Assembly: GCF_009931435.1 (NCBI RefSeq)
Contig: NZ_CP043414.1
Direction: 5' to 3' (one strand)
Source of the DNA: Escherichia coli
GTDB taxonomy: Bacteria > Pseudomonadota > Gammaproteobacteria > Enterobacterales > Enterobacteriaceae
Length of the DNA: 64,000 nt
The notes beneath the pieces are model-generated. The model was not told where the DNA came from. It saw only the letters and a program-made list of their open reading frames with translations, and did no database searches. The first letter of the stretch is position 1. Each line of letters begins with the position of its first letter. The position numbers and the translations under genes are program-made. Shown here piece by piece: positions 1 through 624 of the stretch.

Positions 1-12
1 AAGCTGCTAAGA

Positions 13-28
13 ACACTATATATAGGGG
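13..28 (-). promoter_or_regulatory. Candidate NrdR box in the nrdAB control region (nrdA itself lies off-window to the left)
   Basis: acactatatatagggg matches the palindromic NrdR-box consensus I recall at 14 of 16 positions; a weaker second candidate (ATAGTGT half-site, 44-59) lies about 31 bp away, the expected helical spacing. Confidence 0.35.
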
Positions 29-88
29 GTATGTTTGGGATTCACTGCAAGATAGTGTGAAAATGGCCCTCTTGCAAGTGCATAACTT

Positions 89-97
89 TGTGGATAA
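89..97 (-). promoter_or_regulatory. DnaA box (TTATCCACA on the minus strand)
   Basis: Exact 9-mer tgtggataa on the plus strand; DnaA boxes are known in the nrdAB promoter region, which this edge should correspond to. Confidence 0.4.
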
Positions 98-624
98 CTC
101 AGGAAGGAAAAAGTGGCTTCCGCGCACCTTAGGTCAGACAAGGTATCCGGGAAAGTCAATGGGAAGAGAAAAATTTGTTAAAAATAACTGTTCGGCGATT
201 TCTTGAACGGCAGAATAGTATGGGTAAATTGATATAGATGGTTTATTAATCTTGTCGCTAATGATTGTCAAAATTGATCTAAGCACGAATCATCACATAA
301 TCTGATGTATCAGTTGTGGTCAATATATAAGCGAATGTAAGCGATTGTTGAGTCGGAAATGGTTGTTTTCTATTCGGTTATTGTTAAATACCAAGCCAAT
401 TTGTTACTTTTGCATATATTATAAGAATATTATTTATTACTTTAATTCAGTTTACATATAACCGATTTACCTTAAGGTTATTAATTTGAATTATGACACA
501 CTGATATTATTCATCAAATAATAACAAAATAGTCATTGCACCGGGTTGTACAATTTACAAAAGAAATATACCCCATAGCGCATAATGCGATTAAATACGC
601 CGTCTTATAGAAAATGATGGTTAG

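Follow-up and report, generated by a model that had tools for sequence, protein, structure and literature searches.

The nrdAB control region at the edge of an Escherichia coli sequence: core promoter, double DnaA box and half of the NrdR repressor site

The left end of the analysed DNA (hereafter the window, a 64,000-nt stretch of E. coli) is, with little room for doubt, the Escherichia nrdAB control region, lying on the minus strand and clipped by the window edge; for this genome the exact transcription start and box 2 are deduced rather than read directly. Positions 1-100, which read aagctgctaagaACACTATATATAGGGGgtatgtttgggattcaCTGCAAGATAGTGTGAaaatggccctcTTGCAAgtgcataactttgtggataactc, contain the core promoter, a double DnaA box and half of the NrdR repressor site (Table 1). 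In E. coli, the tightly bound NrdR pair would consist of box 1 (13-28) and a second box (box 2) located 15 bp further downstream, whereas box 0 (45-60), over the -10 element and start site, would be a weak or vestigial third box. The control region as such is real but ordinary: it has already been described in detail, and nothing in it is new.

Table 1. Positions of regulatory elements and genes in the window and of phage P1-type counterparts
Feature	Position	Strand	Description
Box 1-box 2 linker, first 12 of 15 bp	1-12	-	From alignment to K-12, L001 and L012; oligos in PMC12176259
NrdR box 1	13-28	-	Sense CCCCTATATATAGTGT; key positions 6/6 (C4, A6, A8, T9, T11, G13)
Box 0-box 1 linker	29-44	-	16 bp; covers the transcript start; from sequence and the oligo design in PMC12176259
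Likely transcription start	about 42-46	-	Placed from the -10 position and from box 0 covering the -10/start
NrdR box 0	45-60	-	Sense TCACACTATCTTGCAG; key positions 5/6 (position 6 is C, not A); overlaps the -10 and start
-10 TATCTT	49-54	-	Putative; from the sequence TTGCAA, 17 bp, TATCTT
Promoter spacer	55-71	-	17 bp
-35 TTGCAA	72-77	-	From sequence; one base in common with the DnaA box at 77-85
Second DnaA box TTATGCACT	77-85	-	8/9 to TTATNCACA; missed by the original prediction
Spacer between DnaA boxes, AAG	86-88	-	3 bp
Consensus DnaA box TTATCCACA	89-97	-	9/9 to TTATNCACA; kept in Escherichia and Rahnella
Upstream regulatory region of nrdA	98-176	-	Highly conserved within Escherichia
Small ORF ypaB, 47 aa	63-206	+	Runs antisense to the nrdA promoter; part of the K-12 and L001 annotations
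yfaL	625-4389	+	Window ORF
ubiG	4529-5299	-	Window ORF
gyrA	5398-8025	+	Window ORF
P1-type copies	L121 2940-3120; L122 (phage P1 NC_005856) 803-858		Counterpart of window 59-174

Genomic setting of the control region

The gene beyond the left edge had been predicted to be nrdA. Leftward extension through relatives bears this out: nrdA occupies this place in the closest match (L001), in K-12 and in four further Escherichia sequences. In the three closest Escherichia sequences its ATG lies 66 nt to the left of window position 1. The expectation that the gene itself would not be visible is equally correct; judged from the relatives, 65 nt of 5' UTR and nrdA lie beyond the edge. Because the window contains neither nrdA nor box 2, we infer both for this genome from its relatives.

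Among complete E. coli genomes, L001 is 98.8% identical to the window over positions 1-1200. This segment is matched in 5,425 of 5,426 complete genomes, in most of them at only 90-95% identity. Over the first 5.2 kb the best identity to any complete E. coli genome is 97.7%, and for gyrA it is 99.0%. The DNA thus likely comes from a lineage of the E. coli group, possibly a cryptic clade, that is missing from the RefSeq complete genomes. The gene order in L001, from left to right, is yfaE, nrdB and nrdA (minus strand), ypaB and yfaL (plus strand) and ubiG (minus strand). K-12 has the same layout, and the order nrdA / ypaB / yfaL / ubiG / gyrA is shared with the window.

Window 1-260, reverse-complemented, gives a gap-free alignment to K-12 in which all regulatory elements are identical. 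The elements within 13-97 (boxes 0 and 1, the two promoter hexamers and the DnaA box pair) agree with the K-12 nrdAB promoter/operator in sequence as well as in spacing. Two substitutions, both outside the elements, distinguish the window from K-12: T is replaced by A at about window 9-10, within the linker of boxes 1 and 2, and by C in the spacer of the promoter. Beyond these, the window differs from K-12 in that it ends before box 2 and nrdA and that its yfaL allele is divergent. An Rfam scan of window 1-1000 at E-values up to 1 returned no RNA family.

Core promoter and start site

The nrdA promoter had been expected to lie just outside the window. This is true of the nrdA gene but not of its core promoter, since both hexamers and the likely start fall within positions 42-77. 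RNA polymerase would use TTGCAA, 17 bp and TATCTT (49-77) and would initiate at about 42-46. The K-12 leader is presumably 110 nt long, and a start at window position 45 would fit this length. Box 0 is described as overlying the -10 and the start site (2026 preprint).

The arrangement TTGCAA-17-TATCTT agrees with the consensus at 8 of 12 positions, and a sigma-70 scan of window 1-700 with a threshold of 9/12 did not call it as a promoter. Because a consensus sigma-70 scan misses nrdAp, the promoter assignment rests on orthology and spacing. A weak sigma-70 promoter of this kind fits the literature description of the nrdA promoter as activator-dependent. The -35 hexamer TTGCAA is kept in Escherichia, in Rahnella and in a copy carried by phage P1, and CACTATCTTG is invariant between Escherichia and Rahnella.

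Further regulators have been described. Sites for Fis and IciA, as well as a cell-cycle element, have been reported in the area upstream of nrdA, and for nrdAB, Fis and IciA are listed as further activators and H-NS and NrdR as repressors (PMC4009431). An inverted-repeat search of window 1-320 (seed 6) found no repeat, although the literature places a 45-bp inverted repeat upstream of the DnaA boxes.

Double DnaA box

The perfect DnaA 9-mer TTATCCACA that had been predicted on the minus strand is present at 89-97. The window has three perfect 9-mers where chance alone predicts 0.43, so a lone 9-mer is weak evidence. The more informative feature is the double box: the consensus box and the second box have the same orientation and are separated by 3 bp, and no other such pair occurs in the 64 kb, whereas a single perfect 9-mer is not informative. 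The two other perfect TTATCCACA copies, also on the minus strand, lie at 13449-13457 and 40355-40363 with no second DnaA box nearby. Among the rows listed in a K-12 DnaA ChIP-seq table, no peak matches either position (PMC11317965), and these 9-mers are probably non-functional or titration sites.

Published binding data bear directly on the double box. DnaA ChIP-seq in K-12 gives a peak at nrdA over the double box gTTATCCACAaagTTATGCACTt, with 14-fold coverage over control; genome-wide, only 13 of the 32 perfect TTATCCACA sites of K-12 are DnaA-bound (PMC11317965). The double box in the window is identical to the K-12 sequence bound in that experiment and has the same form as the double-box motif derived from it (same orientation, 2-3 bp apart).

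DnaA acts on nrdAB in a nucleotide-dependent manner: DnaA-ADP or low DnaA-ATP at high-affinity boxes activates the operon, and high DnaA-ATP represses it (PMC8203912, PMC11853086). DnaA would bind the double box (77-97) cooperatively, abutting the -35. Low DnaA-ATP or DnaA-ADP may then help the polymerase and high DnaA-ATP repress it, which would tie dNTP synthesis to replication initiation. A third box at nrdAB is also mentioned (PMC8203912); as a guess, ATTTTCACA (56-64, minus strand, two mismatches) could be a candidate for it, of the DnaA-ATP type.

NrdR operator in E. coli

Box 1 is the strongest NrdR site in the window. The predicted 14/16 match to the NrdR palindrome at 13-28 was recovered as ACACTATATATAGGGG, with two mismatches to ACACTATATATAGTGT, and it is the only match in the window at three or fewer mismatches, against 0.06 expected. 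The four NrdR boxes of E. coli nrdHIEF and nrdDG (oligos in PMC12176259), and none from nrdAB, were used to make a symmetrised position weight matrix (PWM). Of the 63,985 positions scanned with this matrix, 13-28 comes out on top with 17.0 bits, the next best reaching 9.7, so that the site also stands up to formal scoring; box 1 scores as high as the nrdHIEF and nrdDG boxes from which the matrix was made. Its sequence is identical to that of K-12, and it lies at about +17 to +32 of the transcript.

A weaker partner had been placed about 31 bp away. It exists, with its best register at 45-60 and a start-to-start distance of 32 bp; the coordinates of the original prediction are right throughout. 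This site (CTGCAAGATAGTGTGA) scores 7.7 bits and ranks 18th of 63,985 positions. It is the classical box annotated by Rodionov and Gelfand (2005) and by Torrents (2007), for which the current name is box 0. Together with box 1 it reaches a paired score of 24.7 bits, against 10.1 for the next pair in the window, and its 16-bp linker lies within the 15-16 bp spacing of paired boxes. As the functional partner of box 1, it does not hold, since that role falls to box 2, which is off-window.

Alignment of K-12, L001 and L012 places box 2 at bases 4-19 beyond the left edge, with the remaining 3 bp of the linker also off-window; the window edge therefore cuts the linker of the operator. Box 2 reads GTACTACAGGTAGTCT in K-12, TCACTACAGGTAGTCT in L001 and GCACTACAGGTAGTCT in L012, and the box 2-like 16-mer expected to the left of the window would be nnACTACAGGTAGTCT. 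The box 1-box 2 pair with its 15-bp linker is seen in L001, L002, L012, L004, L060 and L074.

The pairing of box 1 with box 2 is supported by binding measurements. E. coli NrdR·ATP·dATP binds a box 0+1 probe with a Kd above 6000 nM and a box 1+2 probe with a Kd of 113 nM (Rozman Grinberg et al. 2025, PMC12176259), which indicates that the functional partner lies off-window, on the other side of box 1. The latter value is similar to those for nrdHIEF (138 nM) and nrdDG (160 nM) (PMC12176259). In an older EMSA, mutation of box 1 abolishes NrdR binding and mutation of box 0 is without effect (PMC12176259). The failure of box 0 is ascribed to the C at position 6, a C6A change giving 10-fold higher affinity; binding needs both boxes of a pair, and the linker sequence is irrelevant (2026 preprint). 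The nrdHIEF and nrdDG operators have 15-bp linkers and a central AT in both boxes, whereas nrdAB box 2 has a central AG, and unlike these operators nrdAB carries the extra weak box 0.

The demotion of box 0 derives from short-oligo in vitro work by one group and the older EMSA. Box 0 may have some role in vivo, since its spacing is the one conserved across other genera. A model in which all three boxes are used, through alternative tetramers (0+1 or 1+2) or a cooperative second tetramer, with box 0 contributing to repression over the -10 only at high NrdR levels, is nevertheless unlikely. Its appeal is that boxes 0, 1 and 2 occur in 6/6 Escherichia sequences in helical register, with linkers of 16 and 15 bp, that box 0 ranks 18th among the 63,985 positions, and that NrdR forms higher oligomers and filaments (PMC12176259). 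The filaments described, however, are ATP-only forms, which do not bind DNA, and the published NrdR binding data give box 0 occupancy no support (PMC12176259).

The box 1-box 2 pair thus has a practical consequence for annotation. If NrdR sites were annotated with nothing but the classical pair, the operator would be labelled wrongly, because the functional partner is downstream and, here, beyond the window.

NrdR boxes across Enterobacterales

Species-representative genomes were scanned once for a degenerate motif covering nrdA codons 7-23, a criterion that does not depend on the promoter; this yielded 118 Enterobacterales loci. L001 and K-12 were added, and 117 upstream regions (mainly from GTDB species representatives) were long enough to score; the taxon sample is restricted to sequences matching the strict nrdA codon pattern. 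A strong NrdR box 1 is present in 117/117 regions, 81-114 nt upstream of the nrdA ATG.

The partners of box 1 differ between genera. Within the 117 regions, a downstream partner (15-16 bp, at least 7.6 bits) occurs only in Escherichia, in 6/6 sequences and with 7.8-11.4 bits. It is absent from the 102 other-genus sequences and the nine Rahnella sequences, where the maximum at this position is 2.3 bits. An upstream partner at exactly 16 bp and with at least 7.6 bits is found in 100 of the 102 other-genus sequences, typically ACTCACCATATAGCGT at 11.4 bits. Rahnella (9/9, 7.6 bits) and Escherichia (6/6, 8.1-8.3 bits) have a partner at this distance as well. In the background, scores of at least 7.6 bits occur at a rate of 1.6e-4 per position. 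Mean information per column in the other genera is 1.69 bits for the upstream box, against 0.82 for the linker. Given this column information and the frequency of the 16-bp partner, the upstream partner outside Escherichia has the appearance of a real box under selection. In Escherichia it looks weaker, and box 2 seems to supplement or replace it.

This comparison also bears on the classical model, implicit in the original prediction, in which the operator would be box 0 plus box 1, wholly inside the window, with NrdR occluding the -10 and start. The pair of Rodionov and Gelfand (2005) and Torrents (2007) is still used in 2025 genome-wide box searches; its 24.7 bits stand far above other window pairs, and a 16-bp linker is within the allowed spacing (2026 preprint). 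The near-universal 16-bp partner in other genera and in Rahnella, set against its low background, speaks for it too, as does the literature finding that mutation of the upstream box in Salmonella raises expression. For E. coli the model is nonetheless improbable. NrdR binds the 0+1 probe far more weakly than the 1+2 probe (PMC12176259), and the C at key position 6 of box 0 accounts for a 10-fold loss relative to a restored A (2026 preprint). Box 0 of Escherichia, at 8.1 bits, is also below the 11.4 bits of most other genera, and its conservation is explicable by the embedded -10 hexamer. The box 1-box 2 pair is therefore retained as the reading for E. coli.

Two nrdA promoter architectures

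Two nrdA promoter architectures occur in Enterobacterales, a Salmonella type and an Escherichia/Rahnella type. In Escherichia and Rahnella, the TTATCCACA box lies upstream of a shared TTGCAA-17-TATCTT, and the block from this DnaA box to box 1 is alignable.

The Salmonella type (Salmonella, Citrobacter, Klebsiella, Enterobacter and Erwinia; Panosa et al. 2010) resembles the window in several respects: the spacing between box 1 and the ATG is similar, box 1 is preceded 16 bp upstream by another NrdR box near the -10, and DnaA boxes are present. Its core promoter differs, the -10 (TAGAAT) lying immediately 5' of the upstream box. That upstream box (ACTCACCATATAGCGT, 11.4 bits) is stronger than in Escherichia and box 2 is lacking, so the NrdR pair is ACTCACCATATAGCGT-N16-CCCCTATATATAGTAT. 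The DnaA boxes (TTATCCACAgagTTAGTCACA and an inverted TGTGGATAA) are in the leader downstream of box 1, whereas those of Escherichia are upstream of the -35. The upstream neighbour is ubiG, not yfaL. This architecture is seen in most Enterobacteriaceae and Erwiniaceae, for example in Salmonella arizonae (L072) and Klebsiella oxytoca (L037).

The gene neighbourhood varies as well. In the other genera, ubiG is directly upstream of nrdA, at 343-590 nt in all but one sequence. Only Escherichia and one Rahnella species have yfaL between ubiG and nrdA, about 700 nt from nrdA and in the opposite orientation. The presence of yfaL may reflect a horizontal transfer linked to the promoter difference.

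The core promoter of Escherichia appears to align with its counterpart in Rahnella (Yersiniaceae) but not with those of Salmonella, Citrobacter or Klebsiella. One possible explanation, to which we give somewhat less than even chances, is that the nrdAB control region was rewired in Escherichia: a Rahnella-like promoter, DnaA boxes upstream of the -35 and a switched NrdR partner, coinciding with the yfaL insertion. In such a rewiring, the NrdR partner seems to move from the conserved upstream box, weakened to box 0, to the Escherichia-specific box 2. The cross-genus pattern is a lead and not a result, and the literature cited here does not discuss it. If true, lineage-specific rewiring of the control region of an essential operon would be a modest, testable evolutionary point.

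The yfaL alleles themselves are highly divergent, with 63-97% amino-acid identity among Escherichia sequences. The yfaL of Rahnella bonaserana (L063) shows 52% amino-acid identity and lies about 700 nt from nrdA in the same relative orientation.

Conservation within E. coli and the ypaB reading frame

Of 5,426 E. coli genomes, 5,425 contain the whole of window 1-100, essentially all at 95% identity or more. The matching records at 99% identity or more number 3,601, and matches sampled further down the ranking are still at least 98% identical. The adjacent intergenic segment nearer yfaL (210-620) is 90-95% identical in most genomes. The higher conservation of 1-100 relative to 210-620 is consistent with constraint on the control region.

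The small plus-strand ORF ypaB overlaps this conserved DNA and was considered as a real gene that might explain the conservation. This was rejected because three species of the genus, E. albertii, E. whittamii and Escherichia sp. E1V33, have a truncated ORF of only 17 aa. Moreover, every difference among E. coli sequences within ypaB alters an amino acid. On these two grounds, the conservation is attributed to regulatory DNA and not to a protein, and ypaB is probably an accidental ORF over conserved regulatory DNA rather than a conserved coding gene.

That the motifs are unrelated to nrdA, being chance matches or signals for the plus-strand ypaB ORF (63-206) or for yfaL (625), is scarcely credible and is effectively refuted by orthology and published binding data: ypaB is indeed annotated across the region, and perfect DnaA 9-mers do stand at two other window sites without known role, but the PWM and double-box statistics speak against chance, the DNA is identical to the experimentally bound K-12 sequence, the elements lie 530-610 nt upstream of yfaL, and the ypaB ORF is truncated in the three species despite conserved DNA.

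Copies on phage P1 and related plasmids

Part of the control region has a counterpart on phage P1. Window 59-174 shares 83% identity with the P1 DNA that precedes hot (upfN/upfO), and over 59-97, where the -35, the two DnaA boxes and some of the spacer lie, identity is 39/39. The similarity stops at window 59, within the promoter spacer; only 26/58 positions are identical over 1-58, and the P1 copy has no NrdR boxes. It also differs from the window in sitting on a phage-plasmid among unrelated flanking genes. The P1 copy was considered as a novelty and rejected as such, the NC_005856 record already annotating a 56-nt similarity to E. coli DNA that holds two DnaA boxes. Copies of the nrdA upstream region are found in P1 and P1-like phage-plasmids, with 217 plasmid matches among E. 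coli assemblies. The phage P1 ORF upfO is homologous to ypaB.
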